A DNA stretch of 64,000 bases from Desulfobacterales bacterium (GCA_037481615.1 JBBFLI010000023.1); one strand, 5' to 3'. Shown: positions 1-16,845, counted from the first letter of the stretch. Notes: generated from the sequence alone by a model not told the origin. Numbers and translations: made by a program.

Positions 1-2336
1 CCGAAGCAGCGCAGGTCCATGTAGAAGACGGCGCAGTCGAGCCCGCCGTGGGCGTGCTCCTTGGCGATCATCGCGTCCTTGATCGCGTACATGCAGCACA
101 CCGAGGAACAGTAGCCGTTGCCCGCGCGGTTGATGTCGCGCGAGCCGACGCACTGCAGCCAGGCGATCCGCTTCGGCTCGCGGCCGTCGAAGGGCCGCAG
201 CAGCCGTCCCTGGGTCGGGCCGGAGGCGGAGAGGATGCGCTCGAACTCGAGGCTGGTGAGCACGTTCGGCGAGCGGCCGTAGAGCAGGACGTCGGCGAAG
301 GGGGCGGGGTCGAAGGGTCGGCTTCCGGGGGCGAGGATGACCGCGCCCACGGAGAGTCTCCGCTCCCGCGGCCGTTCCTCGTGGCGCACGGCCTGCGCGA
401 GGCAGGCGGCGACGCACTGCCGGCACTCGCAGCAGTAGCCGCAGTTGAGGCATCGTCCGGCCTCGGCGCGGCCCTCCTCCTCGGTCAAGCCGAGTTCCAC
501 CTCCCGGAAATTGCCGCGGCGATCCGCGGGGGGGAGCTCCCGCATGCGCGCCCTCGCCCGCGGCGGCTCCCCGGGCGGGATCGGCCGGTGGCGCGCCTCC
601 CCCGGCTCGACGGGCCCGCGGCCCTGGGCGAGGTCGGCCCCGTCCAGGAAGCGCACGATCGAGACGGCGGCCTCCTTGCCCGCGGCCACGGCACCGATCG
701 CCACCCAGGGGCCGGTCACGAGGTCGCCGCCGGCGAAGACGCCGGGGATCCCGGTGGCGAAGGTGACGGGGTCGGCCTCGAGCGTCCCCCAGCGGGAGAC
801 GGCGAGGCCCGCCGCGCGCTCGAGGGCCGCGAGATCCGGCCGCTGGCCGATGGCGGCGATCAGCTGGTCGCATTCGATCTCGAACTCGCTGCCCGGCACG
901 GGGACGGGGCGCCTGCGGCCCGAGGAGTCCGGCTCCGTCAGGCGCATGCGGATGCAGCGCAGGCCGCGCACACGGCCCTCCTCGAGCAGGATCTCCTGCG
1001 GGGCGGCGAGGTAGACGATGCGGGCCCCCTCCTCCTCCGCGGCGCGGATCTCCTCCTCCCAGGCGGGCATCTCGGCCCGCGTGCGGCGGTAGAGGATCGT
1101 CACCTGCTCGGCCGCGAGCCGCAGCGCCGAGCGGGCGACGTCGATGGCGACGTTCCCCCCGCCCACGATGACCACATGGCGGCCGACCGCGGCGCGGCCC
1201 GTGAGGTTCACCTCGCGCAGGAAGTCGACCCCCTGGCGCACCCCCCGGCCGCGCTCGCCGGGGATGCCGAGCTCGATGCCGCGATGCGCGCCGAGAGCGA
1301 GGTAGACGGCGCGGAAGCCCTGCGCGAAGAGATCCTCGAGGCCGAAATCCCGGCCGAGCGCGACCCCGGTGCGGATCTCCACCCCCAGGCGCGTGACGAC
1401 CTCGATTTCGCGGTCGAGCACCTCGCGCGGCAGACGGTGGGGCGGGATGCCGGCCCGCAGCATGCCGCCGGGCTCGGGGAGGGCCTCGAAGATCACCGAG
1501 CCGATGCCGCGGCGGGCGAGATGGTAGGCGCAGGAGAGTCCGGCCGGCCCGGAGCCCACGATCGCCACCCGTTCGGGGCGGGGGGGATCGCAGGGGACGG
1601 GGATCTCCCGCGGGTCGGCCCGGTCGGCGGCCAGGCGCTTGAGGTCGCGGATGGCGACGGGCTCGTCCTTCTCGGCGCGGCGGCAGGCGTTTTCGCAGCC
1701 GTGGGGGCAGATGCGGCCGAGCACGCCGGGGAGGGGGAGGTCCTCGAGGATGATGGCGAGCGATTCGCGGTATTTCCCCTCCTTGACCATCTGGACATAG
1801 CCCTGGACGTTCAGGCCCGCCGGGCAGGCCGTGCGGCAGGGGGCGGGGTCGGCCTTCTCGATGGCGAAGGCGCCGGGGATCGCCTGGGCGTAGAGCTTGT
1901 AGGCCGCGCGGCGCTTCGAGAGCCCCTCGTCGTACTCGTTGGGGAGCGAAACCGGGCAGACGCGGGCGCACTCCCCGCAGCTCGTGCACTTCACCGGGTC
2001 GATGTAGCGCGGCCCCTCGCGCACCACGGCGGTGAAGGCTCCGGGTGCGCCCTCGAGGGAGAGGACCTCGGCGTTCGTGAGGATCTCGATGTTTCGATGC
2101 CGGCCGACCTCGACCAGTTTGGGCGAGACGATTCACATCGCGCAGTCGTTGGTCGGGAAGGTCTTGTCCAGGCGGGACATCAGCCCGCCGATCGCCGAGG
2201 ATCGCTCCGCGAGGTAGACGCGGAAGCCGGACTGGGCGAGGTCGAGCGCGGCCTGCATGCCGGCGATCCCGCCGCCCACCACGAGGACCGCCCCCGTCGG
2301 GTCGGAGGAGGTGCCGCTCGTCGGATCGAGTGCCAT
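1..2336 (-). CDS. hdrA: HdrL-type heterodisulfide reductase A-like flavoprotein with inserted GltD-like NAD(P)H module; probable selenoprotein (UGA 2133-2135); 3' end runs off the window
   Basis: ATG 2336 gives MALDP..VLVVGGGIAGMQAALDLA..LDKTFPTNDCAM-UGA-IVSPKLVEVGRH. The segments I translated downstream continue in frame: ferredoxin CTSCGECARVCP, GltD-like PCRTACP/GRICPHGCENAC, GSGPAG, GGGNVAIDVAR..ILYRR, CLNCGYCCECRQC, and HdrA WLQCVGSRD..YCSSVCCMYAIK. Most of this frame is absent from the ORF track. Confidence 0.9.
2100..2117 (-). promoter_or_regulatory. Bacterial SECIS-like hairpin of hdrL-1
   Basis: Begins 15 nt after the UGA: CUGGUCG-AGGU-CGGCCGG, a 7-bp stem with two G-U pairs and G among the first two loop positions. 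Identical to the hairpin at 5518-5535. Confidence 0.75.
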
Positions 2337-2392
2337 GGGTTCCCCCCTTTGCCGTTTCCGTTCTGCCGCCGCCGTCCCGGCGGCGGCAGGCT

Positions 2393-3265
2393 TCAGAGTG
2401 CCTCCACGATCTCCGGCAGCTTGTCCTCCCAGCCGAGGGTGGCGACCGCCACCGCCCGGTAGCCGCGGGCGCGCAACGCGCGGATCCCCTCGACGGCGAT
2501 CTGGACGCATTCGCGCACCTTGTCGGGCGCCTTCTGGAGGCGCTCGATCGTCTCGGGGGGAATGCGGATGTGGGGCACGTTGCGCTCGATGTAGCGCGCC
2601 ATGCCGAGGGATTTGAGCAGCAGGATCGTCGGCACGAGCCTCTCCCGGCCCTGACCGAGCCGGCGCACGACCGGCTCGAGGAATTCGGGGTCGAAGATCG
2701 GCGGGGTGATGAAAAAGCGGGCCCCGGCCTGCAAGCGCCGGGCGATGTCCTCGGCCTCGAGTTCCGCCGAGCGCCCGGGGGAGCCGGCCTGGGTGGTCGC
2801 CCCCGTGAAGAAGCGGGGGGCCCCCTCCAGGTCGACCCCGGCCAGGTCGCGGCCGCGCTCGAGCCCGCCGATCGCCTCGAGGAGCTCGATCGCACTCAGA
2901 TCGTAGACCGCCCGGGCGCGGTGGTGGTCGCCGAGGCTGGGGTCCTCCCCGCTCACGACGACGAGGTTTTCGACGCCGCAGGCGAAGGCGGCGAGGAGGT
3001 CGCCCTGGAGGGCGAGGCGGTTGCGGTCCCGGCAGCAGACCTGCATCACGGGCTCCATGCCCTCCCGCCGCAGCAGGAAGGCCGCCCCCAGGGCGCTCAT
3101 GCGCATCACCGCCTGATGCATCTCCGGCACGATGAAGGCGTCGACGCGCTCCTTCACCCGGCGCGCATGGTCGAGCATCGGCGCCACGTGAACGCCCTTG
3201 GGCGGCTCGAGTTCCGCCAGGAGGACGAATTCCCCCGCCGCAAGCTTCTCTCTGAGCGACATCAC
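2393..3265 (-). CDS. Methylenetetrahydrofolate reductase (MetF)-like protein, divergent paralog
   Basis: LAELEPPKG, VDAF, EPVMQVCCRDRNRLALQGDLL, GARFFITPPIFD, ATLGWE. Alignable by eye with the MetF at 10985-11914. Confidence 0.85.
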   Translation of the reverse strand: MMSLREKLAAGEFVLLAELEPPKGVHVAPMLDHARRVKERVDAFIVPEMHQAVMRMSALGAAFLLRREGMEPVMQVCCRDRNRLALQGDLLAAFACGVENLVVVSGEDPSLGDHHRARAVYDLSAIELLEAIGGLERGRDLAGVDLEGAPRFFTGATTQAGSPGRSAELEAEDIARRLQAGARFFITPPIFDPEFLEPVVRRLGQGRERLVPTILLLKSLGMARYIERNVPHIRIPPETIERLQKAPDKVRECVQIAVEGIRALRARGYRAVAVATLGWEDKLPEIVEAL

Positions 3266-3318
3266 CGCGATCCTCCTTCCGCTGCGCCCCGAGACCGCCT
3301 CCGAATACCCGGGGGTTT

Positions 3319-3335
3319 GGCAAACTCCATGCCCC
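3319..3335 (-). promoter_or_regulatory. Sigma54 (-24/-12) promoter for the metF-like/hdrL-1 operon
   Basis: Minus strand GG-CATGGAGTTT-GC (GG-N10-GC with TTGC), about 55 nt upstream of the start at 3265. A divergent sigma54 activator is adjacent, and an imperfect IHF-like site (TTTCAACGGTTTT, minus strand) lies at about 3421-3433. Confidence 0.65.
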
Positions 3336-3604
3336 GGCGGCGAAAAGCGGCTGGCATTTCGTTATTCCATGAAAAACTGGATGGTTGTACGACGGCGCGC
3401 CCTCTGCGCGGACGACCGGGAAAACCGTTGAAATCCGTCACGAACCCTGCCAAAATGGAAGAGCGGCTGCGGTTATCAAACCATGTCGGTGGGTTGTGCA
3501 GGTGTTCCGCCCCGGCACGGGGGCCTGCCATTGCGGCAGGGAGAGGAAAGCGACCCGGGCCTTCCCGGGCGATTCCCGCCGAGGGCGGTAGAGGATGGGA
3601 GTCC

Positions 3605-4972
3605 ATGAGCGGACCGCGCATCCTGGTCGTCGACGACGACCGGGACTATCTCGAATTGATGGAGCGCCGCCTGCGGGCGGCCGGCTATGAGTCTCTCGAG
3701 CTCTACGACGACCCGCTGCCGGCCCGGGAGCGTTTCACCGCCGGCCCGGAGGTGGATCTCGCCCTGATCGACGTCGGGCTTCCGGGGATGGACGGCCGGG
3801 AGCTTCTCGAGTGGATCAAGAATCACAGCGCGGCGACCGAGTGCCTCCTGGTGACGGCGATGAACGACGCGCGGACCGCGATCGCCTGCCTGCGCCTCGG
3901 CGCCTACGACTATCTCGTCAAGCCGGTCTCCGAGGAGGACCTCGTCTTCGCCGTGCGCCGTGCCCTCGAGCGCAAGCGGCTGCTCGACGTGCTGTCGATC
4001 GAGCGCAGCCGTCGCCCCCCCGCCTTCGAGCATCCCGAGGCCTTCGCGGGGATCCTCACCGCCTCCGCGGCCTTGCGCAAGGTGCTCAAGGAGGCCGAGC
4101 TCCACGCCGCGAGCGACATGCCGATCCTGATCACGGGGGAGAGCGGCACGGGAAAGGAGCTTCTCGCGCGCGCGATCCACCGCGCCAGCCCGCGCCGCGA
4201 CCGGCCGTTTCTGCCGGTCAACATGGCCGCGCTCTCGGCCGAGCTCTTCGAGTCGGAGTTTTTCGGCCATGTCCGGGGAGCCTTCACCGGAGCGGAAAAA
4301 GACCGGCCGGGCCACCTGCGTTCCTGCGCGGGCGGGACCCTTTTTCTCGACGAGATCGGAAACCTCTCGCCCGCCTTGCAGGGGAAGCTCCTGCGCGTGT
4401 TGCAGGACGGGGAATTCACCCCCGTCGGGAGCTCGCTCCCCCAGCGGGCCGACGTGCGCTTCATCGCCGCCACCAACGAAGATCTCGAAGCGCTGATCGC
4501 CGGCCGGCGCTTCCGGCTCGATCTCTATTACCGCATCCGCGGCAGCTGGCTGCATCTGCCGCCGCTGCGCGAGCGTCGCGAAGACATCCCGCTCCTGGTC
4601 GCGCACTTTCTCGCGGAGCTCGGGGTCCCGCCCCCGGAGCGCGAGCCAGGCCCGGGGGTGATCGAGGCGCTTTCCGCCCACGATTTCCCGGGAAACGTGC
4701 GCGAACTGCGCTCCATCCTGCAGGCGGCGGTCAACCTCGCCCGCGGCGGGCGGATCGCCCTCGAGCACCTGCCGCCCGGCCTGCGCGCGAAAAGGATCCC
4801 GACGGCCTGCTTCCTCCGTGACGGGACCCCGCTCAGGCTCGCCGACGTCGAAAAACACCACATCCTCACCGTCTACGAGCGGCTCGACCGCAACAAGGTG
4901 CGCACCGCCCGGGCGCTCGACATCGGCCTGAACACGCTGCGGCGCAAGCTGCGGGCTTACGGAGAGAGCTGA
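3605..4972 (+). CDS. Sigma54-dependent response regulator (NtrC family: REC-AAA+-Fis HTH)
   Basis: ILVVDDD and LIDVGLPGMDG receiver motifs; GESGTGKE, GAFTGA, LFLDEIG, FPGNVREL; C-terminal NKVRTARALDIGLNTLRRKL. No cognate histidine kinase in the window. Confidence 0.95.
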   Translation: MSGPRILVVDDDRDYLELMERRLRAAGYESLELYDDPLPARERFTAGPEVDLALIDVGLPGMDGRELLEWIKNHSAATECLLVTAMNDARTAIACLRLGAYDYLVKPVSEEDLVFAVRRALERKRLLDVLSIERSRRPPAFEHPEAFAGILTASAALRKVLKEAELHAASDMPILITGESGTGKELLARAIHRASPRRDRPFLPVNMAALSAELFESEFFGHVRGAFTGAEKDRPGHLRSCAGGTLFLDEIGNLSPALQGKLLRVLQDGEFTPVGSSLPQRADVRFIAATNEDLEALIAGRRFRLDLYYRIRGSWLHLPPLRERREDIPLLVAHFLAELGVPPPEREPGPGVIEALSAHDFPGNVRELRSILQAAVNLARGGRIALEHLPPGLRAKRIPTACFLRDGTPLRLADVEKHHILTVYERLDRNKVRTARALDIGLNTLRRKLRAYGES

Positions 4973-5013
4973 AAACTCGATCCAACCCCTTGAATTTTAT
5001 ACACCGATTTCTC

Positions 5014-5042
5014 TTGACAGCCCCCGGCGGAACGAGCATAAT
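5014..5042 (+). promoter_or_regulatory. Sigma70-type promoter of the hdrL-mvhD-metVF operon
   Basis: TTGACA(5014-5019)-N17-CATAAT(5037-5042), with AT-rich sequence upstream. Confidence 0.75.
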
Positions 5043-5313
5043 CGCATCCTTCATGGGCTTGCCACGCGGTGGCAGCCGTTCTATTCCACGCGGCAGGAAG
5101 AAAACGGGATTGGTCAAGCTCCCCCCCGCCGTACACCCGATCGGGCGCTTTCACCCCGAGCTCTCCGTTTCCCCGGCCCGCTTCCGTCCTGCCCGGAAAA
5201 GGCGCCTCGCGGAGGCCGCCCCCGCCGTCGCGGCGGGGCCCGCTCTCTTGTGCCGCCGCCTGCGGCGGCTGGACCGTCCTCAAGCGCACGAAACCTGAAG
5301 GAGACCTCGACGG

Positions 5314-8300
5314 ATGGAAACCAACCGGAGCGTTCCCAGCGGATCGGTTCTCGTGGTCGGCGCCGGCATCGCCGGCATGCAGGCCGCTCTCGATCTCGCC
5401 AACGCGGACTACAAGGTCTACCTGGTCGACCGCCAGACGGCGGTCGGCGGGCTGATGGCCCAGCTGGACAAGACCTTCCCCACCAACGACTGCGCGATGT
5501 GAGTGATCTCGCCCAAACTGGTCGAGGTCGGCCGGCACACGAACATCGAGCTCGTCACGAATGCGGAACTCGTCGATCTGAAGGGCGAACCGGGCCGCTT
5601 CACGGCCGTGGTGCGCAAGCAGCCCCGCTTTGTGGATTTGGCGAAGTGTACGGCGTGCGGGGAGTGTGCGAAGGTTTGTCCGATCGAGGTGCGGAACGAC
5701 TACGACGAGGGGCTTTCGGCCCGCAAGGCGGCCTACAAGCTCTATCCGCAGGGGATGCCGGGGGCCTATGCGATCGAGAAGCGCGGCACGGCCCCCTGCA
5801 AGGCGACCTGCCCGGCGCACGTGAGTGTGCAGGGCTACATCGCGCTGGTGAACCAGGGGCGTTACCGGGAGGGGCTGGAGCTCTTCCGCGAGGAGCACCC
5901 GTTTCCGGGGGTGTGCGGCCGGGTGTGTCATCACCCGTGCGAGGGGGAGTGCACGCGGGGTGCGGTGGACGAGGCGCTGGCGATCCGGGAGCTGCACCGG
6001 TTTTTGTTCGACTGGGAGCGGGCGGCGGGGGAGCTGGCGGTGCCGCAGGCGGAGGAGACGCGGCCGGAGAAGGTGGCGGTGATCGGCTCGGGGCCGGCGG
6101 GGTTGTCGGCGGCGTATTTTCTGGCGCGGCGGGGATACCGGGTGACGGTGTTCGAGAAGCTTCCGGTGGCGGGGGGGATGATGGCCGTGGGGATTCCCGC
6201 CTACCGGCTGCCGCGGGAGGTGTTGGAGCGGGAGATCGAGCTGATCCGGCGCCTGGGGGTGGAGATCCGCACCGGGGTGGCGCTGGGGCGGGAGGTGAGC
6301 TTCGAGAGCCTGAAGGCCGAGGGATACGGCGCGGTGTTCGTGGCCGTGGGGCTGCACGGGGGCCGGCGGCTGGGAGTGGAGAACGAGGATGCGGCGGGGG
6401 TGCTGCAGGGGGTGGATTTCCTGCGGCGGGTGTCGCTGGGGGAGAAGGTCGAGATCGGCCGCGAGGTGCTGGTCGTGGGCGGCGGCAACGTGGCGGTGGA
6501 TGTGGCGCTCACGGCGAAGCGGCTGGGGGCGCAGTCGGTGACGATGGTGTGCCTCGAGCGGCGGGAGGAGATGCCGGCCTGGGCGCACGAGATCCAAGAG
6601 GCGCTCGAGAGCGACATCCGCATCGTGAACAGCTTCGGGCCGAAGGCGTTTTTCATCGATGCTTCGCGGCGGGTGTCGGGGATCGAGTTCAAGTCGTGCA
6701 CGGCGGTCTTCGACGAGAGCGGGCGGTTCAACCCGAGCTTCGACGAGTCTTCCTGCCAGGCGATGTTCGCCGACACGGTGATTTTGGCGATCGGCCAGAC
6801 GCTGGAGCGGGGGGACTTGGCGGAGGCGGGGGTGCCGTTGCGGGGCCCGGGGCTGGAGGCGGACCCGGTGACGCTGCAGACGCCGCTCGGCTGGGTGTTT
6901 GCGGGGGGCGATGCGCTCTACGGGCCGAAGTCGGTGGTGGAGGCGGTGGCCTGCGGCAAGGAGGCGGCCGAGAGCATCCACCGCTATCTGAACGGGCAGG
7001 ATCTGCGTGCGGGGCGGCCGCGGCGCTGGGAGATGGTGCGGCCGGAGGGGGTCGAGGAGCCGCGACGGCGGCGGGTGCCGGTGCGCTGCTTGGAGCCTGC
7101 GGCGCGGGAGTGCAATTTTCTCGAGGTTTCCTACGGCTACGACGAGACCGAGGCCCGTGCCGAGGCGTCGCGCTGCCTGCGCTGCGGCGTCTGCTCGGAG
7201 TGCTACCGGTGCGTCAAGGCCTGCCTCGCCCAGGCCGTCGACCACGGCCAGCGGGAGGAGACGCTCGAAATCCCGGTCGGGGCGGTGATCCTGGCGCCGG
7301 GCTGCGAGCCCTTCGACCCCGCGCGCCTCGAGAACATCTACCGCTACCGCACCAGCCCCAACGTCCTCACCAGCCTCGAGTTCGAGCGCATCCTCTCGGC
7401 CACGGGCCCCACCCAGGGGCACCTTCAGCGGCTCTCCGACGGCCGCGAGCCGAAGCGCATCGCCTGGCTGCAGTGCATCGGCTCCCGCGACAACAACCAG
7501 TGCGGCAACTCCTACTGCTCCTCGGTCTGCTGCATGTACGCGATGAAGGATGCGATGATCGCCAAGGAGCACGCGCACGGGGAGCTCGAGTGCACGATCT
7601 TCAACATGGACATCCGCAGCTTCGGCAAGGACTACGAGAAGTATTACAACCGCGCGATCCGCGAGGGCATCCGCTTCGTGCGCTCGCGCGTGCACTCGGT
7701 CGACGTCCTGCCGGAGACGGGGAACCTGTCGCTGCGTTACGTGGACGAGGCGGGGGAGATCAAGGTCGAGGAATACGATCTCGTCGTGCTCTCGGTCGGC
7801 CTGCAGGTGCCGCGGGCGACCGAGGAGCTGGCCGCGAGGATCGGCGTGCGGCTGCTCCCCTCGCGGTTCGCCGCGACCGACCCGTTTGCGCCGGTGTCGA
7901 CCTCGCGGCCGGGGGTTTACGTCTGCGGCGCCTTCCAGGGGCCCAAGGACATCCCCGGATCGGTCACCGAGGCGAGCGCGGCGGCCGCCGCGGCGGCGGC
8001 GGATCTCGCCGCCGCCCGCGGCCGCGACATCGTGCGCCTCGAGCTGCCCGAGGAGATCGACGTCTCGGGGCAGGAGCCGCGGATCGGGGTCTTCGTCTGC
8101 AACTGCGGGATCAACATCGGCGGTGTCGTCGACGTCCCCGCCGTGCGCGCCTACGCGGAGAAGCTCCCCTACGTCGCCTTCGCCGACGAGAACCTCTTCA
8201 CCTGCAGCCAGGACACCCAGGAGAAGATCAAGGAGAAGATCCGCGAGCACGGCCTGAACCGTGTCGTGGTCGCCTCCTGCAGCCCCAAGACCCACGCGCC

Positions 8301-9753
8301 CATGTTCATGGAGACGCTCGAGGCCTGCGGCCTGAACCGCTACCTCTTCGAGATGGCGAACATCCGCAACCAGGACTCCTGGGTCCACGCCGACGACTGC
8401 GAGGCGGCGACGCGCAAGGCGAAAGAGCTGGTGCGCATGTCGGTCGCGCGCGCGGCCGCGCTGCGGCGGCTGGAGAGCAAGACCGTCCCCATCCACAAGC
8501 AGGCCCTCGTCGTGGGCGGCGGTGTGGCGGGGATGAACGCGGCGCTCGCGCTCGCCGAGCAGGGGTTCCCGGCGGTGATCGTGGAGAAGGAGCCCCAACT
8601 CGGCGGCTTCGCGCGCCGGCTCCACCACACGATCGAGGGGGCGGACATCGCGGCCTATCTCCGCGAGCTGGTCGGACGCGTCCGCGACAACCCGCGCATC
8701 CGCGTCGTCACCTCCGCGCGCATCACCGGCTTCGAGGGCTTCAAGGGCAATTTTCAGACGACCGTCGTCGCCGGGCCGGAAGGGGCGGCGGAGAAGATCC
8801 CCCACGGGGCGCTGATCCTCGCCACCGGAGCCCTCGAGTACCGCCCCTCGGAGTACGGCTACGGCGCAGACCCGCGCGTTTCGACCCAGGTCGAGTTCGG
8901 CGATCTCCTCGCCCGCGGAGAGGAGACCTCGGGCCTGCAGACCGTGGTCATGATCCAGTGCGTGGGCTCGCGCAACGAGAAGAACGAAAACTGCTCGCGG
9001 GTCTGCTGCCAGAGCGCGGTCAAGAACGCGCTCGCCCTGAAGGAGACCTCGCCCGACAGCCAGGTCTACATCCTCTACCGCGACATGCGCACTTACGGCC
9101 TGCTCGAGGACCACTACACCGAGGCCCGCCGCCGCGGGGTGATTTTCATCCGCTTCGAGCCCGAGGCCGCCCCGCAGGTCGACTTCGGCCCGGAGGCCGT
9201 CCGGGTGCGGGTGCGCGATCCCATCCTGCAGCGGGACCTCGAGATCGCCGCCGACCGGCTGGTGCTGAGCGCCGGGGTCGTCGCCGCGGACACCTCCGAG
9301 CTGAGCGCGCTCATGAAGGTGAACCGCAACCCCGAGGGCTTCTTTATCGAGGCGCACGTGAAGCTGCGGCCGGTGGACATGCCGAGCGAGGGGGTCTACG
9401 TCTGCGGCACGGCCCACGGGCCGAAGCTCATCTCGGAGGCGATCGCCCAGGCGAAGGCGGCGGCGGCGCGTGCGGCGACGCTGCTCTGCCGCGATGCGAT
9501 CCGCCTTTCGGCCATCACGGCCAAGGTCGACCCCGAGCACTGCGTCAAGTGCCTGACCTGCGTGCGCTCCTGCCCCTTCGGCGTGCCGCAGTTCAACGAG
9601 CAGAGCCGTGTGGTCGAGATCAACGAGGCTCTCTGCCGCGGCTGCGGCGTCTGCACGGCGGTCTGCCCGCGGCAGACGATCCGCCTGAGCTACTACGAGG
9701 ACGAGCAGATCGTCTGCAAGATCGAGGCGCTCTTGAGCGAGGAGGTGGCCTGA
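5314..9753 (+). CDS. hdrA: HdrL-type flavoprotein (tandem HdrA domains, inserted ferredoxin and GltD-like NAD(H) module); probable selenoprotein (UGA 5500-5502)
   Basis: ORFs 5314..5502 and 5503..9753 are in one frame, joined by LDKTFPTNDCAM-UGA-VISPKLVEVG where HdrA normally has CxxC. Motifs: CTACGECAKVCP, PCKATCP, GRVCHHPCEGEC, GSGPAG, GGGNVAVD, QCIGSRD..YCSSVCC, IGVFVCNCG, a second VVGGGVAG, and C-terminal CVKCLTCVRSCP/CRGCGVCTAVCP. SD-like aaggag upstream. Confidence 0.93.
5518..5535 (+). promoter_or_regulatory. Bacterial SECIS-like hairpin of hdrL-2
   Basis: CUGGUCG-AGGU-CGGCCGG begins 15 nt after the UGA. It lies within a 31-nt stretch identical to the hdrL-1 paralog. Confidence 0.75.
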
Positions 9754-10196
9754 TGGTCGAGTTCGAACCCACGATCATCGCCTTCTGCTGCGAATACTGA
9801 GGTTACTCGGCCGCGGACCTGGCAGGTTCCATGCGACTGAGCTACCCGGCGAACGTGAAGATCATCCTCGTCCCCTGCACGGGCAAGGTGGACGTGATGC
9901 ACCTGCTGCAGGCGATCCAGCGGGGCGCCGACGGGGTCTACTGCGTCGGCTGCCTCGAGGGCGCCTGCCACTACAACCAGGGCAACCTCCGCTGCCGCGA
10001 GCGGGTCGAGCGCGTGCGCGAGATCCTGCAGGAAATCGGCCTTGAGCCGGACCGGGTGCGGATGTACAACCTCTCCTCGGGGGAGGCGCCCACCTTCGTC
10101 GCCTACGCGCGGGAGATGACCGAGCTGATCCGCCGGCTCGGGCCGAACCCGCTCAAGCACTCGAAACCCTCGATCCGGATCGAGCAAGCCGCCTGA
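9753..10196 (+). CDS. mvhD: MvhD/FlpD-family [2Fe-2S] subunit; probable selenoprotein (UGA 9798-9800)
   Basis: The ATG overlaps the hdrL stop (TGATG). Translation: MVEFEPTIIAFCCEY-UGA-GYSAADLAGSMRLSYP..VPCTGKVD..GADGV..GCLEGACHY. The ORF track starts it too late (9831). Confidence 0.92.
9815..9830 (+). promoter_or_regulatory. SECIS-like hairpin of mvhD
   Basis: GGACCU-GGC-AGGUUCC, a short stem with a possible bulged U and a G-starting loop, 14 nt after the UGA. Confidence 0.55.
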
Positions 10197-10254
10197 GGCC
10201 CGGGGGCCGGGGCGGCCCGCCCCTCTTTGCGGGCGGCCGCGGGAGGAGAAAGCG

Positions 10255-10932
10255 ATGATCGTTGCCAAGCGCAAACCGTTCGAGGAGATTCTGCAGATGA
10301 TCGACGGCCACCGCAAGGTGCTCGTCGCCGGCTGCGGGACCTGTGTCGCCGTCTGCCTGGCGGGCGGCGAGAAGGAGGTCGCGGTGCTCGTCGCCGAGAT
10401 CGACATGGCGCGGCGGCTCAAGAACCGGCCGATCGAACTCGGTCAGACGACGCTCGAGCGCCAATGCGACCGGGAGTATCTCGCCCAGCTCGACGGCCGG
10501 GCGGAGTCCTACGAGGCGATCGTCTCGCTCGCCTGCGGGGTGGGGATCCAGTTCCTCGCCGAGCGCTTCCCGAAGATCCCCGTCTATCCGGGGGTGGACA
10601 CCTGCGGGCTGGCGGTCAACCAGGACGTCGGCTGGTACGAGGAGCGCTGCCGCTCCTGCGGCCGCTGCGTGCTCGACCGCACGGGGGGCATCTGCCCGGT
10701 GACGCTCTGCGCCAAGGGGCTCTACAACGGTCCCTGCGGCGGGACCAACCGCGGCTCCTGCGAGATCGACCCCGAGCAGCCCTGCGCCTGGTATGCGATC
10801 TACGAGCGGCTCAAGGGGCAGGGCAGGCTCGATCGCATCCGCGCCATCACGCCGGCCCAGGAGTGGAGGGACACCGTGCCGCGGACCCTCATCCAGCCGG
10901 GCTACCGCAAACCGGAAAAGGCCAAGTCCTGA
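10255..10932 (+). CDS. metV: MetV (MTHFR C-terminal-domain Fe-S/Zn subunit)
   Basis: GCGTCVAVCLAGG, ERQCD, LACGVG, ERCRSCGRC, GICPVTLCAKGLYNGPCGG..CE..PCAW; directly upstream of metF. Confidence 0.9.
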   Translation: MIVAKRKPFEEILQMIDGHRKVLVAGCGTCVAVCLAGGEKEVAVLVAEIDMARRLKNRPIELGQTTLERQCDREYLAQLDGRAESYEAIVSLACGVGIQFLAERFPKIPVYPGVDTCGLAVNQDVGWYEERCRSCGRCVLDRTGGICPVTLCAKGLYNGPCGGTNRGSCEIDPEQPCAWYAIYERLKGQGRLDRIRAITPAQEWRDTVPRTLIQPGYRKPEKAKS

Positions 10933-10984
10933 GCCGCCGCCGTCGGCTCGCACCGATACCGCCTTCGACCGAGGGGTGAGACCC

Positions 10985-11914
10985 ATGATGAAATCGGGCA
11001 GCAACCTGGAGAAGATCCTGCGTGCGGGGCATTTCGCGTTCACCGGCGAGCTCGGGCCGCCCCGCGGCGCGCACGCCGAGGAGGTGCGCAAGAAAGCCGC
11101 CCACCTCAAGGGCCGGGTGGACGCGGTGAACATCACCGACAACCAGACGGCGGTCGTGCGCATGGCGAGCTGGGCGGCTTCGCTCATCCTGATCCAGGAA
11201 GGCCTCGAGCCCAACTACCAGATGGTCTGCCGCGACCGGAACCGGCTTGCCATGCAGGCCGACATTCTCGGCGCGGCGGCCCTGGGCATCCGCAACATGC
11301 TCTGCCTCTCGGGCGACCACTGCCTCTTCGGCGATCACCCGACCGCCAAAGGGGTCTTCGATCTCGACTCCATCCAGCTCATCCGCATGGTGAAGCAGCT
11401 GCGCGACGAGGGCAAGTTCCAGAGCGGCGCCGATGTGGACGGCCGGCCGGCGATCTTCATCGGGGCGGCGGCGAACCCCTTCGCCGATCCCTTCGAGTGG
11501 CGCATCCAGCGGCTGGCGAAGAAGGTCGAGGCCGGGGTCGACTTCATCCAGACGCAGTGCATCTACAACATGGCCAAGTTCCGCGAGTTCATCCGGCTGG
11601 CGAACGAGGAGGGCCTCACCGAAAAGGTCTTCATCCTGGCCGGCATCACGCCGATGAAGAGCCTCGGCATGGCCAAGTACATGAAGACCAAGGTGCCCGG
11701 GATGGACGTCCCCGACGGGATCATCACCCGGCTCCAGGGGGTCCCCCGCGACAAGCAGGCCGAGGAGGGGATCAAGATCGCCCTCGAGCAGATCGCCGAG
11801 CTGAAAGAGATGAAGGGCGTGCACGGCGTGCACCTGATGGCGATCGAGTGGGAGCACCGTGTGCCCGAGATCGCCGAGCGGGCCGGGATGCTGCCGCGTC
11901 CCGTGGTGAACTGA
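10985..11914 (+). CDS. metF: 5,10-methylenetetrahydrofolate reductase MetF
   Basis: FTGELGPPRG, VDAVNITDNQ, QMVCRDRNRLAMQ, LCLSGDH, KKVEAGVDFIQTQ, GVHLMAIEWE. Confidence 0.93.
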   Translation: MMKSGSNLEKILRAGHFAFTGELGPPRGAHAEEVRKKAAHLKGRVDAVNITDNQTAVVRMASWAASLILIQEGLEPNYQMVCRDRNRLAMQADILGAAALGIRNMLCLSGDHCLFGDHPTAKGVFDLDSIQLIRMVKQLRDEGKFQSGADVDGRPAIFIGAAANPFADPFEWRIQRLAKKVEAGVDFIQTQCIYNMAKFREFIRLANEEGLTEKVFILAGITPMKSLGMAKYMKTKVPGMDVPDGIITRLQGVPRDKQAEEGIKIALEQIAELKEMKGVHGVHLMAIEWEHRVPEIAERAGMLPRPVVN

Positions 11915-11919
11915 ACGCC

Positions 11920-11951
11920 AGCCCCCGGCGGCTTCCGCCGCCGGCTTTTTT
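11920..11951 (+). terminator. Rho-independent terminator after metF
   Basis: CGGCGG-CTT-CCGCCG hairpin with flanking AGCC/GGCT pairing, followed by TTTTTT. Confidence 0.7.
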
Positions 11952-11958
11952 GCCCGCG

Positions 11959-11978
11959 TTATGAATCTCCATTCATAA
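11959..11978. promoter_or_regulatory. Palindromic operator-like site upstream of tetR
   Basis: Perfect inverted repeat TTATGAAT-CTCC-ATTCATAA; shares the ATGAAT half-site with 12068-12094. Confidence 0.55.
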
Positions 11979-12042
11979 TTTTGTTTCCGCTTGCAAAGCC
12001 GCCCACCAGAACGAGATACCACCGGGATAGTTTGTTTTTTTG

Positions 12043-12094
12043 TTGACAGCCCGACTCGTTCCGGTTAATGAATGAACGCTCATTCATGAATGAG
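12043..12094 (+). promoter_or_regulatory. Promoter with overlapping FadR(TetR)-type operator
   Basis: TTGACA at 12043-12048. ATGAATGA-ACGC-TCATTCAT (12068-12087) resembles the Bacillus FadR/YsiA box. An overlapping perfect palindrome CTCATTCATGAATGAG spans 12079-12094. Confidence 0.75.
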
Positions 12095-12102
12095 ACGCAA
12101 CC

Positions 12103-12753
12103 ATGACCACGCCCGATCCCGAAGACCGCAGCGCCAAGATCCAGCGCATTCTGGAGGCCGCGGTGCGCGTCTTCGCCCGTCAGGGTTTCCACCAGTCGAC
12201 GGTGGCCCAGGTGGCGCGTGAGGCCGGGGTCGCCGACGGGACGATCTACAACTATTTCCGGAACAAGGACGATATCTTGATCCAGTTCTTCGCCGTGCGC
12301 GCCGGCCAGGTCTTCGCCCGCTTCCGCAGCGAGGTGGCGCGGGCGGCGAACGGCCTCGAAAAGCTGCGGCTGCTCATCCGGGCGCATCTGGCCGAGTTCC
12401 AGCGCGACCCGGACATGGCCGTGGTCTACGAGACCGAGACCCACCAGAGCAGCCGTCTCGCCGAGGAGCAGATCCGCGCCATGGCGAAGACCTACCAGGA
12501 CATTCTCGCCGAGATCATCGAGCAGGGGCAGGAGGAGGGCCTTTTCCGCCGCGATCTCTATGCCGGTCTCGTCAAGCGTCTGATCCTGGGCGCGGTGCAG
12601 GAGACGATCAGCTCCTGGCTGCGCTCGGGCCGACCTTACGATCTGGTCTCCATGGCGGATCCGCTGGTCGATCTCTTCCTCCACGGGATCGCCCAGAGCC
12701 CCCCCGCCGCGGAGAACCGTGCGTCCCGAACACCGCAAACCGAGGAGGGCTGA
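12103..12753 (+). CDS. TetR/AcrR-family regulator, FadR(YsiA)-like
   Basis: ILEAAVRVFARQGFHQSTVAQVAREAGVADGTIYNYFRNKDDIL; first gene of a fatty-acid oxidation operon. Confidence 0.92.
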   Translation: MTTPDPEDRSAKIQRILEAAVRVFARQGFHQSTVAQVAREAGVADGTIYNYFRNKDDILIQFFAVRAGQVFARFRSEVARAANGLEKLRLLIRAHLAEFQRDPDMAVVYETETHQSSRLAEEQIRAMAKTYQDILAEIIEQGQEEGLFRRDLYAGLVKRLILGAVQETISSWLRSGRPYDLVSMADPLVDLFLHGIAQSPPAAENRASRTPQTEEG

Positions 12754-12756
12754 GGC

Positions 12757-14574
12757 ATGGCGCAATGGATCGCCGACCGCCGGGATGTCGATTTCGTGCT
12801 CCACGAGCAGCTGCGCGTGGCGGAGCTTGCAGCGCATGAGCGGTTCGCCGACTTCAACCGCAAGACGGTGGACCTCGTCGTGGCCGAGGTGCGCAACCTC
12901 GCCCTCAAGGAGATCCTGCCCACGCAGAAGGACGGCGACCGGATCGGGGCGCGCTTCGACGCCGGCCGCGTGACCGTGCCGGAGTCCTTTCACAAGGCCT
13001 GGCGCGCGCTGCGGGAGGGCGACTGGATCGCCATGACCGAGGACCCCGAGTGGGGCGGCCAGGGCATGCCGCACACGCTCGCCATGGCCGCGACCGACTA
13101 CCTGAACGGGGCGAACTTCGCCTTCATGATGTACGCGGGGCTGACCCACGGCGCGGGCAAGCTGATCGAGCGTTTCGGGACCCCGGAGCAGAAGCGGATG
13201 TTTCTCAAGAACATGTTCACCGGCCGCTGGACGGGGACGATGCTCCTCACCGAGCCCGAGGCGGGCTCCGATGTCGGAGCCCTCACCACCTCGGCCGTGC
13301 GGCGGCCGGACGGGACCTACGCCCTGACCGGCAACAAGATCTTCATCTCCTCGGGCGAGCACGATCTCGCCGAGAACATCATCCACCCCGTGCTCGCGCG
13401 CATCGAGGGGGCCCCTCCCGGAACGGCGGGGATCTCGCTGTTCCTCGTCCCCAAGATCTGGGTCCACCCCGACGGGAGCCTGGGCGAGCCGAACGACATC
13501 GTCTGCACCGGGATCGAGGAAAAGATGGGGATCCACGGCAACGCGACCTGCGCCATGGCCCTGGGCAGCCGCGGGGCCTGCCGCGGGCTGCTTCTCGGCG
13601 AGGAGAACAAGGGCATGCGCACGATGTTCCTCATGATGAACGAGGCGCGCCTGCTGGTCGGCTCCCAGGGGCTCGCCTGCGCGAGCGCGGCCTATCTCTA
13701 CGCCGTGAACTACGCCCGCGAGCGCATCCAGGGCCGCCACCTGCTGAAGGCCATGGACAAGGCCGCCCCCCCGGTGCCGATCATCCAGCACCCCGACGTG
13801 CGCCGCATGCTGATCACGATGAAAGCCTATGTCGAGGGCATGAGGAGTCTGCTCTACTACATCGGGCGCCTCGAGGACCTGAAGACGCTCGCCCCCGATG
13901 AGGAGCGCCGCCAGGGGTACCAGGGGATGATCGATTTTCTCATCCCCATCGCCAAGGCCTACGTGACCGAGCGCGCCTGCGAGGTCTGCAACCTCGGGAT
14001 CCAGGTCTACGGCGGCTACGGTTACATCCGCGAGTACCCCATGGAGCAGCTCCTGCGCGACTGCCGCATCACGCCGATCTACGAGGGGACCAACGGCATC
14101 CAGGCGATGGACCTGCTCGGCCGCAAGCTCGGACTGAACGGCGGAAAACCGATGATGGATCTCCTGGCCGAGATCCAGAAGACGCTCGCGTTCGCCCGCC
14201 GCCAGCCGCGCACGGCCCCGCTCGCCGCGCCCCTCGAACAGGCGCTCGGGAAACTGGGCGAGGTGGCGATGCACCTCGGGGCGGCGGCGCTCTCGGAGAA
14301 GGTCCTGGTCGCCTTCGCCTACGCGCACCCCTTCCTCACGGTCTGCGGCGACGTGCTCACGGCCTGGATGCTCCTGTGGCGCGCCGCGCTCGCCGCGGAG
14401 AAGCTCGCCCAGGGCGCGCGCGACAAGGAGGCGCTCTTCTACGAGGGGCAGATCCAGAGCGCCCGCTGGTTCCTGGCCAACGAAATCCCGGTCAGCCTCG
14501 GCCGCATGCAGGCGATCCTCGCTGCGGACCCGGCGGCCGTGGAGACGGCCGAGGAGTCCTTCGGCGGCAAATGA
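12757..14574 (+). CDS. Acyl-CoA dehydrogenase (long, ~600 aa type)
   Basis: GTMLLTEPEAGSDVG, GNKIFISSGEHD, EEKMGIHGNATC, GIQVYGGYGY, IYEGTNGIQAMDL. Confidence 0.95.
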   Translation: MAQWIADRRDVDFVLHEQLRVAELAAHERFADFNRKTVDLVVAEVRNLALKEILPTQKDGDRIGARFDAGRVTVPESFHKAWRALREGDWIAMTEDPEWGGQGMPHTLAMAATDYLNGANFAFMMYAGLTHGAGKLIERFGTPEQKRMFLKNMFTGRWTGTMLLTEPEAGSDVGALTTSAVRRPDGTYALTGNKIFISSGEHDLAENIIHPVLARIEGAPPGTAGISLFLVPKIWVHPDGSLGEPNDIVCTGIEEKMGIHGNATCAMALGSRGACRGLLLGEENKGMRTMFLMMNEARLLVGSQGLACASAAYLYAVNYARERIQGRHLLKAMDKAAPPVPIIQHPDVRRMLITMKAYVEGMRSLLYYIGRLEDLKTLAPDEERRQGYQGMIDFLIPIAKAYVTERACEVCNLGIQVYGGYGYIREYPMEQLLRDCRITPIYEGTNGIQAMDLLGRKLGLNGGKPMMDLLAEIQKTLAFARRQPRTAPLAAPLEQALGKLGEVAMHLGAAALSEKVLVAFAYAHPFLTVCGDVLTAWMLLWRAALAAEKLAQGARDKEALFYEGQIQSARWFLANEIPVSLGRMQAILAADPAAVETAEESFGGK

Positions 14575-14733: not shown

Positions 14734-16845
14734 ATGGAACCGGCCCTCGTCCCCCCCGCCGCCGCAACGCTCTCGGGCATTCCCGCCCGCCTGATCTTCC
14801 TCCTGGTTCCCCTCCTCGGCATCGGCCTCTTCGCCCGGATCATCCGGCGCCGGCTCGAACCCCTGCGGCGGGCGGCCCCCGACGACCGCTTCAACCGCTG
14901 GGGGGAGCGTCTCGCGGCCGTCTTCCGCCTCTGGCTCGCCCAGGCGCGCCAGCCGCGCTATTTCCTGGCGGGCGTGCTCCACATCGTCGTCTTCTTCGGC
15001 TTTCTCATCCTCGCGGCGCGCTCGCTCGAGCTCGTCGTGCTCGGCTTCGTCGAGGGCTTCGTGCTGCCCGGTTTCGGGGGGGCCTTCGGCGCGGCCTACC
15101 GCGCCCTGAAGGACATCGCCGCCACGGCCGTCCTCGTCGCCGTGGTGATCCTCGCCGTGCGCCGCCTCGTCTTCCGGCCCGCCCGCTATGCCGTGCCCGC
15201 GCGATACGGCAAGGACCACACCCCCGAGGCGATCCTCGTCCTCGGGCTGATCGCCACCCTGCTGGTCAGCGAGGGGATCTTCGAGGCGAGCCTCCTCGCC
15301 GCCGAGCGGCAGCTCGGCCGGGAGACACACGCTCTGCTGCCCTTGACCCTCCCCTGGGCCTTCGCGCGGCTCCTTTCCTCCGCCCCGCGCGAGGCGCTGC
15401 AGGCGCTCCACCTCGCCGCCTACGCCGTCCACGACTTCGCCTTCTTCTTCTTCCTGTGCTTTCTCCCCTTCGGCAAGCACTTCCACGTCGTCACCTCGCT
15501 CTTCAACGTCTTCTTCATGCGGCTCGACCCCGGCACGGTGAAACCCGTGCGGCACGGGGTGGGCGACGAGGAACTCGACCGGCTCGAATCCTTCGGCGTC
15601 AAGCGCTTCGAGGACTTCACCTGGAAGCACATGCTCGATTTCTACTCCTGCGCCGACTGCGGGCGCTGCTCGGACCGCTGCCCCGCGAACCGCGTCGGGC
15701 GCCCCCTCTCGCCGCGCTTCATCTCGATCAAGGCGCGCGATCTCTGCTTCCGGCGCTATCCCGTGCGCGGCCCGATCGCCGCGGCGACCGAGCCGTTGAT
15801 CGGGGGGATCTACGCCGAGGACGAGATCTGGTCCTGCACGACCTGCGGGGCCTGCGAGGAGGAGTGCCCGCTCGGCATCGAGTACATCGACAAGATGGTC
15901 GACCTGCGGCGCGGCATGGTGGACGACGGGCTCGTGCCGCAGTCGCTGCAGAAGCCGCTCGCGGCGCTCGAAAAGCGCGGCAACCCCTGGGGGAAGATGG
16001 AGAAGAAGCGCGGCGACTGGACCCTCGGGGTGGGCGAGGGCTGCCGCGTCAAGCTCTTCGAGAAGGGCGAGGAGGCCGAGGCGCTCTACTTCGTCGACAG
16101 CATCACCTCCTACGACGACCGCATGCAGAAGATCGCCCAGGCCGCCGCCCGGGTCTTCTGCGCGGCGGGCGTCGACTTCGGCATCCTCGGCAAGGACGAG
16201 AAGGACTCCGGCCACGAGGTGCGCCGCTTCGGCGAGGAGATGCTCTTCCAGAGCCTGAAGGAGCACAACACCGAGGCCATCCGGGCGACGGGCGCGCGCT
16301 GGATCGTGACGACCGACCCCCACGCCTACAACGCGCTGCGCAAGGATTACGCGGGGCTGCCGCCCGTGCGCCACGCGAGCGAAGTGATCCTCGAGGCGCT
16401 GCGCGCCGGACGGCTTGCGCTCGCCCCCGCCGGCGACGGGGTGCGCACCTGCGTCTACCACGACCCCTGCTACCTCGGGCGCCACAACCGCCTCTACGAA
16501 CCCCCGCGGCAGGTGATCGACCTTCTGCCCGGGCTGCGCCGGGTCGAGATGGAAGGCGACTGCCGCGACCGCTCCTTCTGCTGCGGCGGCGGGGGCCTGA
16601 TGCTCTTCTACGAGCCCGAGGAGGAGATGCGCATGGGGGTCGTGCGCGTGAAGATGGCCAAGGCGGCCGGCGCCGAGCTGATCGTCGCCGCCTGCCCCTT
16701 CTGCCTCGTGAATCTGGAGGATGCGATCAAGGTGGCCGGCCTGGAGGGAGAACTCGAGGCGGTCGATCTCTGCGAACTCGTCGACCGGTGCCTCGCGCGC
16801 GCGGGCGGGCGAAGCACGGCGAACGGACAGGGAGGCACGGCATGA
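14734..16845 (+). CDS. Membrane Fe-S oxidoreductase, HdrF/FadF/EMO type (ETF:menaquinone oxidoreductase-like)
   Basis: Hydrophobic N-terminus with His residues; CADCGRCSDRCP and CTTCGACEEECP; CCG domain YHDPC/CCGGGG/ACPFC; stop overlaps the etfB start (ATGA). Confidence 0.9.
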   Translation: MEPALVPPAAATLSGIPARLIFLLVPLLGIGLFARIIRRRLEPLRRAAPDDRFNRWGERLAAVFRLWLAQARQPRYFLAGVLHIVVFFGFLILAARSLELVVLGFVEGFVLPGFGGAFGAAYRALKDIAATAVLVAVVILAVRRLVFRPARYAVPARYGKDHTPEAILVLGLIATLLVSEGIFEASLLAAERQLGRETHALLPLTLPWAFARLLSSAPREALQALHLAAYAVHDFAFFFFLCFLPFGKHFHVVTSLFNVFFMRLDPGTVKPVRHGVGDEELDRLESFGVKRFEDFTWKHMLDFYSCADCGRCSDRCPANRVGRPLSPRFISIKARDLCFRRYPVRGPIAAATEPLIGGIYAEDEIWSCTTCGACEEECPLGIEYIDKMVDLRRGMVDDGLVPQSLQKPLAALEKRGNPWGKMEKKRGDWTLGVGEGCRVKLFEKGEEAEALYFVDSITSYDDRMQKIAQAAARVFCAAGVDFGILGKDEKDSGHEVRRFGEEMLFQSLKEHNTEAIRATGARWIVTTDPHAYNALRKDYAGLPPVRHASEVILEALRAGRLALAPAGDGVRTCVYHDPCYLGRHNRLYEPPRQVIDLLPGLRRVEMEGDCRDRSFCCGGGGLMLFYEPEEEMRMGVVRVKMAKAAGAELIVAACPFCLVNLEDAIKVAGLEGELEAVDLCELVDRCLARAGGRSTANGQGGTA

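Follow-up and report, generated by a model that had tools for sequence, protein, structure and literature searches.

We analysed a 64,000-nucleotide stretch of DNA from a Desulfobacterales bacterium (GCA_037481615.1 JBBFLI010000023.1), referred to below as the window, in which positions 1–11,914 carry two hdrL genes, each associated with genes of the methylenetetrahydrofolate reductase (MTHFR) family, on either side of an NtrC-type activator gene. The gene map was based on Pfam, NCBIfam and read-through translation; because the G+C content of the window is 70%, six-frame lists of open reading frames hold many spurious frames. When the left operon is followed past the edge of the window, the twin locus comprises a leftward arm, metF-like–hdrL–mvhD–metV–metF, the activator gene, and a rightward arm, hdrL–mvhD–metV–metF, so that the order hdrL–mvhD–metV–metF is present twice, in each case with a MetF of family PF02219 and an adjoining MetV of family PF12225. 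The sequence-only reading of this DNA had proposed twin selenoprotein HdrL–MetF modules around a sigma54 activator; every part that it named is present, at coordinates that are corrected here, and its interpretation is supported in part.

Gene content of the twin locus

On the plus strand, the right operon consists of hdrL-2 (5314..9753, 1,479 amino acids), mvhD (9753..10196, 147 amino acids; PF02662, E = 3.8e-36), metV (10255..10932, 225 amino acids; PF12225, E = 1.8e-34) and metF (10985..11914, 309 amino acids; PF02219, E = 1.1e-39), and a terminator scan found a terminator-like GC-rich hairpin with a T-run at 11925–11944, 3′ of metF. The start codon of mvhD overlaps the hdrL-2 stop codon (TGATG), in the left copy the metV stop codon carries the metF start codon, and genes within each operon generally abut or overlap. 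MetV has no relative with a solved structure in the PDB. HdrL-2 is an HdrL in the sense of Strittmatter 2009, an HdrA fused with a glutamate-synthase-like NAD(P)H module and followed by mvhD. On the minus strand, the left operon begins with a metF-like gene (3262..2393, 289 amino acids; PF02219, E = 1.4e-20), which is followed after a gap of 56 nt by the first 778 codons of hdrL-1 (2336..1, ATG at 2336). Between the two operons lies the gene for an NtrC-type response regulator of 455 amino acids (3605..4972, plus strand), in which Pfam recognizes a receiver domain, a sigma54-interaction AAA+ domain and a Fis-type helix–turn–helix (HTH) domain.

Reading frame hdrL-1 leaves both the window and its contig (C23), the end of which lies 473 bases from the window start. 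A tblastn search of the whole assembly located the C-terminal half of an HdrL, mvhD with a selenocysteine (Sec) codon, metV and metF at the start of another contig, C42. A same-genus genome (G020) encodes HdrL-1 in one piece; identity to this protein is 90% for the C23 half and 92% for the C42 half, against only 57–59% to HdrL-2 for either half, and because of this match to one uninterrupted protein, we infer, strongly, that the two halves form a single hdrL-1 gene. No exact overlap was found between the C23 and C42 ends, and none of the public DNA pieces listed bridged the gap. The first 55–70 of C42 bases 1–70 are unlike hdrL and lower in G+C, with the hdrL-1 frame beginning directly afterwards; this unrelated start is probably an assembly-end artefact. 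Inspection of the sequence left of the window, as the sequence-only reading had suggested, thus brought to light mvhD and metV together with a third metF; hdrBC was absent.

The paralogues of the left and right operons have the same domain order and are 57–60% identical for HdrL, MvhD and MetF and 49% identical for MetV. The MetF-like protein is more distant, being 35% and 33% identical to the two MetF proteins, has no MetV gene of its own and scores 167.8 bits against NF006396, below the cut-off; by these comparisons it is classed as a divergent MTHFR-family paralogue. Its family is large and metagenomic, with a length of 289 amino acids in most of the 120 best matches, an automatic annotation as methylenetetrahydrofolate reductase, and invariant GDHH and CRDRNR motifs. 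Complex prediction for the left MetV with the MetF-like protein gave a score of 0.00 against a mark of 0.32, which is not evidence either way.

Each HdrL gene contains one in-frame TGA, within the motif FPTNDCAM-U, and each mvhD gene contains one within CC-x-Y-U-GY (U, Sec); the codons lie at 2135..2133 in hdrL-1 (minus strand), at 5500–5502 in hdrL-2 (U63) and at 9798–9800 in the right mvhD (U16). Across the fetched loci, 60 of 108 motif instances have TGA at the HdrA site and the other 48 a Cys codon; for the MvhD site the counts are 64 with TGA and 18 with Cys, of 82. The genome also encodes the machinery for Sec insertion, with a tRNA-Sec on contig C38 and a selB that scores 367.5 bits, above the cut-off of 242. 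The alternation of Sec and Cys at these sites, together with tRNA-Sec and selB, identifies both HdrL and both MvhD as predicted selenoproteins, which bears out the selenoprotein claim made for HdrL and extends it to MvhD, the Sec of which had not been mentioned. Folding of the sequence after the UGA for Sec insertion sequence (SECIS) elements gave small hairpins that were no more stable than shuffled sequence (z −0.36 to +0.47) and was not used as support.

HdrL architecture and dinucleotide-binding motifs

In HdrL-2, the flavin domain of the first HdrA unit carries an inserted ferredoxin domain that is itself split by a GltD/NfnB-like FAD/NAD(P)H module with the motif VCLERREEMPAW; a second HdrA unit follows, with an N-terminal cluster domain and a flavin domain and without the inserted ferredoxin domain, and the protein ends in a 2×[4Fe-4S] domain. 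The part of HdrL-1 encoded in the window holds the N-terminal flavin part of HdrA, a ferredoxin domain that is likewise split by a GltD/NfnB-like module (LYRRTRAEMPAW), and the start of the second HdrA unit. Pfam places Fer4_20 and Pyr_redox_2 inside HdrA, HdrL scores 536.7 bits against NF009410 (cut-off 516), and in comparisons with solved chains HdrL-2 matches methanogen HdrA twice (E = 1e-148 to 3.5e-182) and an NfnB/GltD-type chain once (E = 2.2e-71 to 8.2e-110).

The sequence-only reading had taken the two HdrA flavin domains and the built-in GltD module as a departure from the acetogen enzymes, which does not hold, since the HdrA of Moorella thermoacetica is described with the same build (Kremp 2022, PMC9430772). 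That protein (162.8 kDa, 1,487 amino acids) is reported to have three FAD sites, one NAD(P)H site and eight clusters, to combine an additional TrxR-like domain, split by a GltD domain, with an HdrA unit from which the inserted ferredoxin domain is missing, and to oxidize NADH; in Sporomusa ovata, MetV, MetF, MvhD and HdrA pull each other down (PMC9430772). The real local difference from the acetogen enzyme is the missing hdrCB. According to a rule of Appel 2021, as quoted in PMC9430772, a Glu/Lys pair at the flavin (E356/K409 in Methanothermococcus thermolithotrophicus HdrA) marks bifurcating HdrA. The residues of the first HdrA unit of HdrL-2 that align with this pair are E691 and K745, and neither varies among the 10 HdrL proteins aligned.

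The two HdrL proteins of the locus differ in the insert, at its second Rossmann fold. The motif there is VYRR[S/T/G]..EM[PT]A in five homologues of solved structure (NADPH-linked enzymes, where named); HdrL-1 reads LYRRTRAEMPA (‘YRR’) and HdrL-2 reads VCLERREEMPA (‘CLE’). As a general rule, an acidic residue ending the second strand points to NAD, and a pair of arginines to NADP. On this basis HdrL-1 is probably NADPH-linked and HdrL-2 probably NADH-linked, in keeping with the switchable NADPH/NADH pair that had been proposed from the sequence. The same-genus orthologues listed carry CLE in 8 of 8 HdrL-2 proteins and YRR in 7 of 7 HdrL-1 proteins (one genome appearing twice); the HdrL-1 of the window, too short for this listing, was read separately as YRR.

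A wider motif table comprised 101 HdrL rows, of which 31 were unparsed and left unclassified. CLE-type HdrL was followed by MetV in 24 rows and not in 1, with context unknown in 2, and YRR-type HdrL was followed by MetV in 24 rows and not in 12, with context unknown in 7; YRR-type proteins occur in many other gene contexts, and CLE-type proteins almost always have mvhD–metV next. A MetF-like gene lay upstream of HdrL in 22 rows, 19 of them YRR, 2 CLE and 1 unparsed.

Regulation, conservation and HdrB-type genes

The left module had been proposed to lie behind a GG-N10-GC promoter and the right module behind a sigma70 promoter, and both elements are conserved across genomes. The sigma54-type −24/−12 element GGGCATGGAGTTTGCC (3334..3319, minus strand) lies about 57 nt upstream of the metF-like ATG. 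By consensus counts it has 3 mismatches, which is not above chance, and a search of the window for TGGCAC-N5-TTGCW with at most 2 mismatches gave 13 matches against 14 expected, none of them at the locus; consensus counting being uninformative, it is conservation that argues for this promoter, with GGCA[CT]-N5-TTGC kept in 10 of 10 aligned intergenic regions between metF-like and activator genes, two of them from other families. The genome encodes rpoN. Between the two divergent genes, three palindrome-like sites of the form TKCC-N5-GGMA (3448–3460, 3505–3517 and 3526–3538) are candidate upstream activating sequences. The motif has 6 matches in the 64-kb window, of which 3 fall within the 91 bases from 3448 to 3538, a count that is partly circular as two of the sites defined the motif; all 10 aligned sequences share the CCA-N3-TGGCA core of the first site without change, about 115 nt upstream of the sigma54 element. 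These are probable binding sites of the activator, on which expression of the left operon would depend.

The sigma70-type promoter of the right operon, TTGACA-17-CATAAT (5014..5042, plus strand), agrees with the consensus at 11 of 12 positions, with 2 sites found against 0.1 expected, lies about 270 nt upstream of the hdrL-2 start and has both hexamers invariant in 8 of 8 genomes of the genus; a sigma70-like site before the activator gene, TTGAAA-17-CAAAAT (3428..3456, plus strand), agrees at 9 of 12 positions and overlaps the first palindrome. Directly downstream of the −10 hexamer of hdrL-2 lies a perfect palindrome, TGCCACGCGGTGGCA (5060..5074, plus strand), the only exact match in the window and largely conserved in the genus, which could be an operator or a leader hairpin. 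Its TGCC/GGCA half-sites are those of the putative activator sites, with a spacer of 7 nt instead of 5, and because of these shared half-sites the same regulator might also act on the right operon. An Rfam search over positions 1–12500 (E ≤ 1) returned only a chance microRNA match and thus no riboswitch in the 270-nt hdrL-2 leader.

The activator gene points away from the left operon and runs in the same direction as the right one, and in NCBIfam its product is ntrC/AtoC-like, below equivalog cut-offs. With only receiver, AAA+ and HTH domains, the protein must be kinase-driven. Farther along C42, beyond a shikimate dehydrogenase gene, positions 5135–11217 encode three PAS histidine kinases, of which one is a hybrid that includes a receiver domain, and another NtrC-type sigma54 activator; the orphan response regulator of the window may have its partner among these kinases. 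Contigs from a metatranscriptome (RNA) library (X20) match both operons at 95% identity or more, covering hdrL-1 (326–528 and 1659–1941), metF-like (2937–3256), hdrL-2 (8150–8295), mvhD (9960–10120) and metF (11627–11815). This gives a weak hint that both operons are transcribed, given that RNA libraries can contain DNA. Three public DNA runs cover the whole stretch. Near-identical DNA (71–99% of sampled words) was seen in five public runs from three studies, of sediment, unlabelled and hot-springs metagenomes, so more than one data set contains this organism or close strains of it.

Synteny with related genomes, which the sequence-only reading had named as a test of the linkage, is conserved. 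A MetV search of 41 related genomes gave a match in 37 (22 of 24 in the same genus, and 15 of 17 genera), and seven same-genus genomes have two MetV copies 13–14 kb apart in opposite orientation on one contig. The complete twin layout is present in 7 of 7 same-genus regions fetched, with metF-like, hdrL-1, mvhD, metV and metF leftward and the activator gene, at the same position in all seven, followed rightward by hdrL-2, mvhD, metV and metF. The left-type unit metF-like–hdrL–mvhD–metV–metF also occurs in other families of the order (loci L016, L030, L039 and L043), in two of them with the activator gene divergently upstream, and left-type operons with MetF-like, often with the activator, are found in other families and orders; variants with an HdrA lacking the GltD insert exist as well. 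In public genomes, a pattern scan of one genome per species gave at least 600 HdrL-like stretches, and gene context was counted for the best 80 of these, which span Desulfobacterota, Chloroflexota, Acidobacteriota, Bacillota and other phyla. Directly downstream of HdrL lay MvhD–MetV(–MetF) in 35 and MvhD followed by something else in 25; of the remainder, 6 had no MvhD, 12 stood at a contig end and 2 had no contiguous full-length match. The HdrL–MvhD–MetV linkage is real, old and far from unique to this organism.

As the sequence-only reading had stated for the right operon, hdrBC is missing: neither operon has a gene with the HdrB-type CCG domain, and none was found in window positions 1–14500, in C42:1–12000 or in the seven same-genus loci. 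Such arrangements are frequent, as among the 35 public HdrL–MvhD–MetV loci a CCG gene is adjacent in 16 and lacking in 7 over flanks of at least 1.5 kb on the upstream and 2.5 kb on the downstream side. The genome does, however, encode an orphan HdrD-like selenoprotein of 442 amino acids on another contig (G000:C7:120872–122200, minus strand; L124:6849–8177), with a Fer4 dicluster, one CCG domain and an in-frame TGA before ‘GHELF’; its neighbours are a UPF0047 gene, a putative Tad-like Flp pilus-assembly gene and a dihaem cytochrome c gene. Orthologues that are 65–75% identical lie near the metVF clusters of other loci, and identity to the genes inside such clusters of sister families is 70–75%. 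In eight of these (L016, L024, L027, L034, L038, L040, L071 and L123; six from other families of the order and two public), the gene stands between mvhD and metV and encodes 440 amino acids with a ferredoxin dicluster, one CCG domain and an in-frame TGA; the metV–metF pair is orthologous to the right-hand pair and is preceded by hdrA, mvhD and the HdrD-like gene, and the hdrA lacks the GltD insert. It lies about 0.5 kb downstream of metF in six left-type loci (L039, L042, L048, L049, L051 and L055) and upstream of the cluster in three (L025, L061 and L081). No HdrD-like gene was found near the twin locus, either in this genome or in 7 of 7 same-genus regions; the genus may have replaced the HdrD-like module with the GltD-bearing HdrL-2. 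Further HdrD-like paralogues are encoded on contigs C13 (beside mvhD–hdrA) and C2. The genome also has at least seven further HdrA-type genes (on C2, C13, C17, C14 and C9), several with CCG-domain neighbours, and the C2:121041–124864 region has, upstream of an mvhD, an HdrL-like gene that bears a GltD insert, the third in this genome.

Downstream of the right operon, the window encodes a TetR regulator of the YsiA/FadR type (12103–12753), an acyl-CoA dehydrogenase (12757–14574) and a 703-amino-acid protein (14734–16845) with an N-terminal hydrophobic stretch, an Fe–S dicluster and two CCG domains; tetR and the acyl-CoA dehydrogenase gene also follow the right metF in those same-genus loci that reach far enough. 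The three genes suggest a β-oxidation electron-transfer unit adjoining the MTHFR genes. The CCG/Fe–S protein was considered as a part of the MTHFR system and rejected, as it groups with TetR and the acyl-CoA dehydrogenase and has a different architecture.

Function and relation to known systems

The genome encodes AcsB/CdhC, formyl-tetrahydrofolate (THF) synthetase (Fhs) and DsrA/DsrB, and the host is most plausibly a sulfite or sulfate reducer that uses the Wood–Ljungdahl pathway for acetyl-CoA oxidation. Our preferred reading, to which we assign a probability of about one half, is that both operons encode Hdr-type (Moorella-type, ‘type IV’) MTHFR modules that act by electron bifurcation or confurcation, as two isoenzymes. 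Gene content, domain architecture, Sec codons, the conservation of promoters and synteny and the motif difference are direct observations; complex formation, cofactor specificity, bifurcation and the third carrier are what we infer. MetF would provide a flavin and the site for methylene-THF and methyl-THF, MetV (with its Fe–S cluster) and MvhD ([2Fe-2S]) would pass electrons between MetF and the flavins of the giant HdrA (HdrL), and the GltD/NfnB-like insert of HdrL would be the NAD(P)(H) site. During acetyl-CoA oxidation, methyl-THF and a low-potential carrier (ferredoxin) would most likely be oxidized together to yield 2 NAD(P)H, with the reverse reaction in CO2 fixation. The oxidation of methyl-THF (−200 mV) with NAD(P)+ (−320 mV) is uphill, and one proposal for acetate oxidizers is that ferredoxin drives confurcation at an Hdr-type MTHFR (PMC6295475). 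The right copy, with its sigma70 promoter and CLE motif, would probably be an NADH-linked housekeeping enzyme, and the left copy, with its sigma54 promoter, divergent NtrC-type regulator, YRR motif and extra MetF-like subunit, an NADPH-linked enzyme that is probably signal-induced; this paired sigma70/sigma54 control suggests that cells adjust the pyridine nucleotide coupled to the MTHFR step.

Several points weigh against this reading. The second HdrA unit of HdrL-2 has Gly in the column aligned with E356, and its Lys (K1237) is kept in only 8 of 10 aligned HdrL proteins. The assignment of NADH and NADPH follows from a general motif rule, not from an assay, and CLE also occurs in two left-type operons of other families (L030 and L043), so motif and operon type are not strictly coupled. 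The lack of a nearby hdrBC does not by itself show that an HdrB-type subunit is dispensable, because an HdrD-like Sec protein is encoded in sister operons and, on C7, in this genome. Last, the partially purified Moorella complex neither used ferredoxin nor reduced methylene-THF with NADH (PMC6295475).

One alternative is that the C7 HdrD-like selenoprotein, which combines HdrC- and HdrB-type parts, serves both operons as a subunit in trans, with a disulfide or trisulfide such as DsrC as the third substrate instead of, or besides, ferredoxin. The Fer4 and CCG domains and in-frame TGA of the protein, the occurrence of its orthologues inside, downstream or upstream of metVF clusters (8, 6 and 3 loci, respectively), the dsrAB genes of the host and the presence of HdrBC in the Moorella enzyme (PMC9430772) are all consistent with such a role, and for this reason the ‘self-contained’ complex of the sequence-only reading is not a conclusion that we can keep. 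Yet the gene is far from both operons here and in 7 of 7 same-genus loci, it sits amid unrelated genes, where it is embedded the neighbouring HdrA has no GltD insert and it may belong to a different combination of modules, and 7 of the 35 HdrL–MvhD–MetV loci have no CCG gene in adequate flanks; we consider this alternative possible and rather unlikely. If true, it would link methyl-THF oxidation directly to sulfite reduction. The opposite proposal, in which HdrL–MvhD–MetVF forms a minimal, HdrB-independent bifurcating or confurcating MTHFR, with MetFV supplying the high-potential arm that HdrBC provides in methanogens, with an NADH-specific enzyme for housekeeping and an NADPH-specific one controlled by a two-component, sigma54 system, and with the MetF-like protein adding a second pterin or C1 site, is speculative and in our view doubtful. 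Under it, the CLE/YRR swap would mark a cofactor switch, and the operons would be the simplest system for finding the second acceptor of Hdr-type MTHFRs.

Alternatively, bifurcation may play no part, and HdrL may be a large NAD(P)H dehydrogenase that feeds MetVF in the manner of RnfC2, giving a plain NAD(P)H-dependent MTHFR with a mainly reductive, anabolic role. The third class of MTHFR uses an added NADH-oxidizing subunit and non-bifurcating HdrA-containing enzymes exist (PMC9430772), and the second HdrA unit lacks the inserted ferredoxin domain. Against this, the first unit invariably keeps the Glu/Lys pair that marks bifurcating HdrA flavins, a linear path would need far fewer than three flavin domains and some eight Fe–S clusters, and, in a host with AcsB, Fhs and DsrAB, methyl-THF oxidation by NAD(P)+ alone would be endergonic at the potentials given above (PMC6295475), which makes this an improbable account. 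That the twin is a redundant duplication, with motif and promoter differences of no physiological meaning, would fit the shared domain order and the identities of 57–60% (49% for MetV). However, none of the 7 same-genus loci fetched has lost either copy, either promoter type or either motif type, and left-type operons are not confined to this family or order, so the split is old and has been maintained, and we give redundancy hardly any credence.

The locus bears on the Hdr-type MTHFR, the least understood step in Wood–Ljungdahl energetics, whose second electron partner has been an unsolved question since 2014 (PMC9430772, PMC6295475). As natural variants with no HdrBC alongside, which occur with Sec or with Cys and with either nucleotide motif, this locus and its relatives form a candidate set for purification or heterologous expression. 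In sulfate reducers that oxidize acetyl-CoA completely, the enzyme must solve the uphill oxidation of methyl-THF, and its solution sets the energy yield.

Among known systems, the closest is the MetFV–HdrABC–MvhD complex of M. thermoacetica (comparison drawn from PMC9430772, PMC5861303 and PMC6295475), which shares MetF, MetV, MvhD, the giant HdrA build (1,487 amino acids there and 1,479 here) and the order hdrA–mvhD–metV–metF. It differs in that here hdrC and hdrB are missing both within the operons and next to them, HdrL and MvhD are predicted selenoproteins, the genes form two paralogous sets that differ in promoter and dinucleotide motif, one with an extra MetF-like gene, and the host is Dsr-containing rather than an acetogen. 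The HdrL proteins of Desulfobacterium autotrophicum HRM2 (Strittmatter 2009, PMC2702500) are likewise fusions of HdrA with a glutamate-synthase-like part that have an NADH-binding region, some of them with Sec, and mvhD next; however, HdrL1 is linked there to dsrABC, and the passages of that source relevant here mention no metV or metF beside hdrL, although its figures may. Archaeal HdrA9–11 of ANME-1 (Chadwick 2022, PMC9012536) have an NfnB/GltD-like insertion of about 500 amino acids in the inserted ferredoxin domain of HdrA, and a link to MetF-derived reducing equivalents is discussed for them, but the passages of that source relevant here report no MetVF operon and mention no second HdrA unit. 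MetVF–RnfC2 of Acetobacterium woodii (type III, PMC9430772) shares the MetVF core and a dedicated pyridine-nucleotide input subunit, which is, in contrast, an unrelated RnfC-like protein, without HdrA flavin and without MvhD. With the NfnAB and Sporomusa-type Nfn/GltD-family modules (PDB 4ylf, 5jca, 9n5u, 9bov and 8oh5), the HdrL insert aligns over about 400–500 residues; YRR is common to these modules and HdrL-1, whereas here the module is embedded in HdrA and HdrL-2 has CLE instead. In the literature we found no description of hdrL–mvhD–metV–metF without hdrBC, of the twin layout or of a MetF-like partner, in agreement with the suggestion that the paired layout had not been characterized before, although figures and supplements (for example, Figs 3 and 4 of PMC2702500) may show such clusters. 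Together, these comparisons place the locus not as a new kind of system but as an Hdr-type MTHFR that is locally HdrBC-less, selenoprotein-based and duplicated, with diverged motif and regulation and a conserved MetF-like protein.

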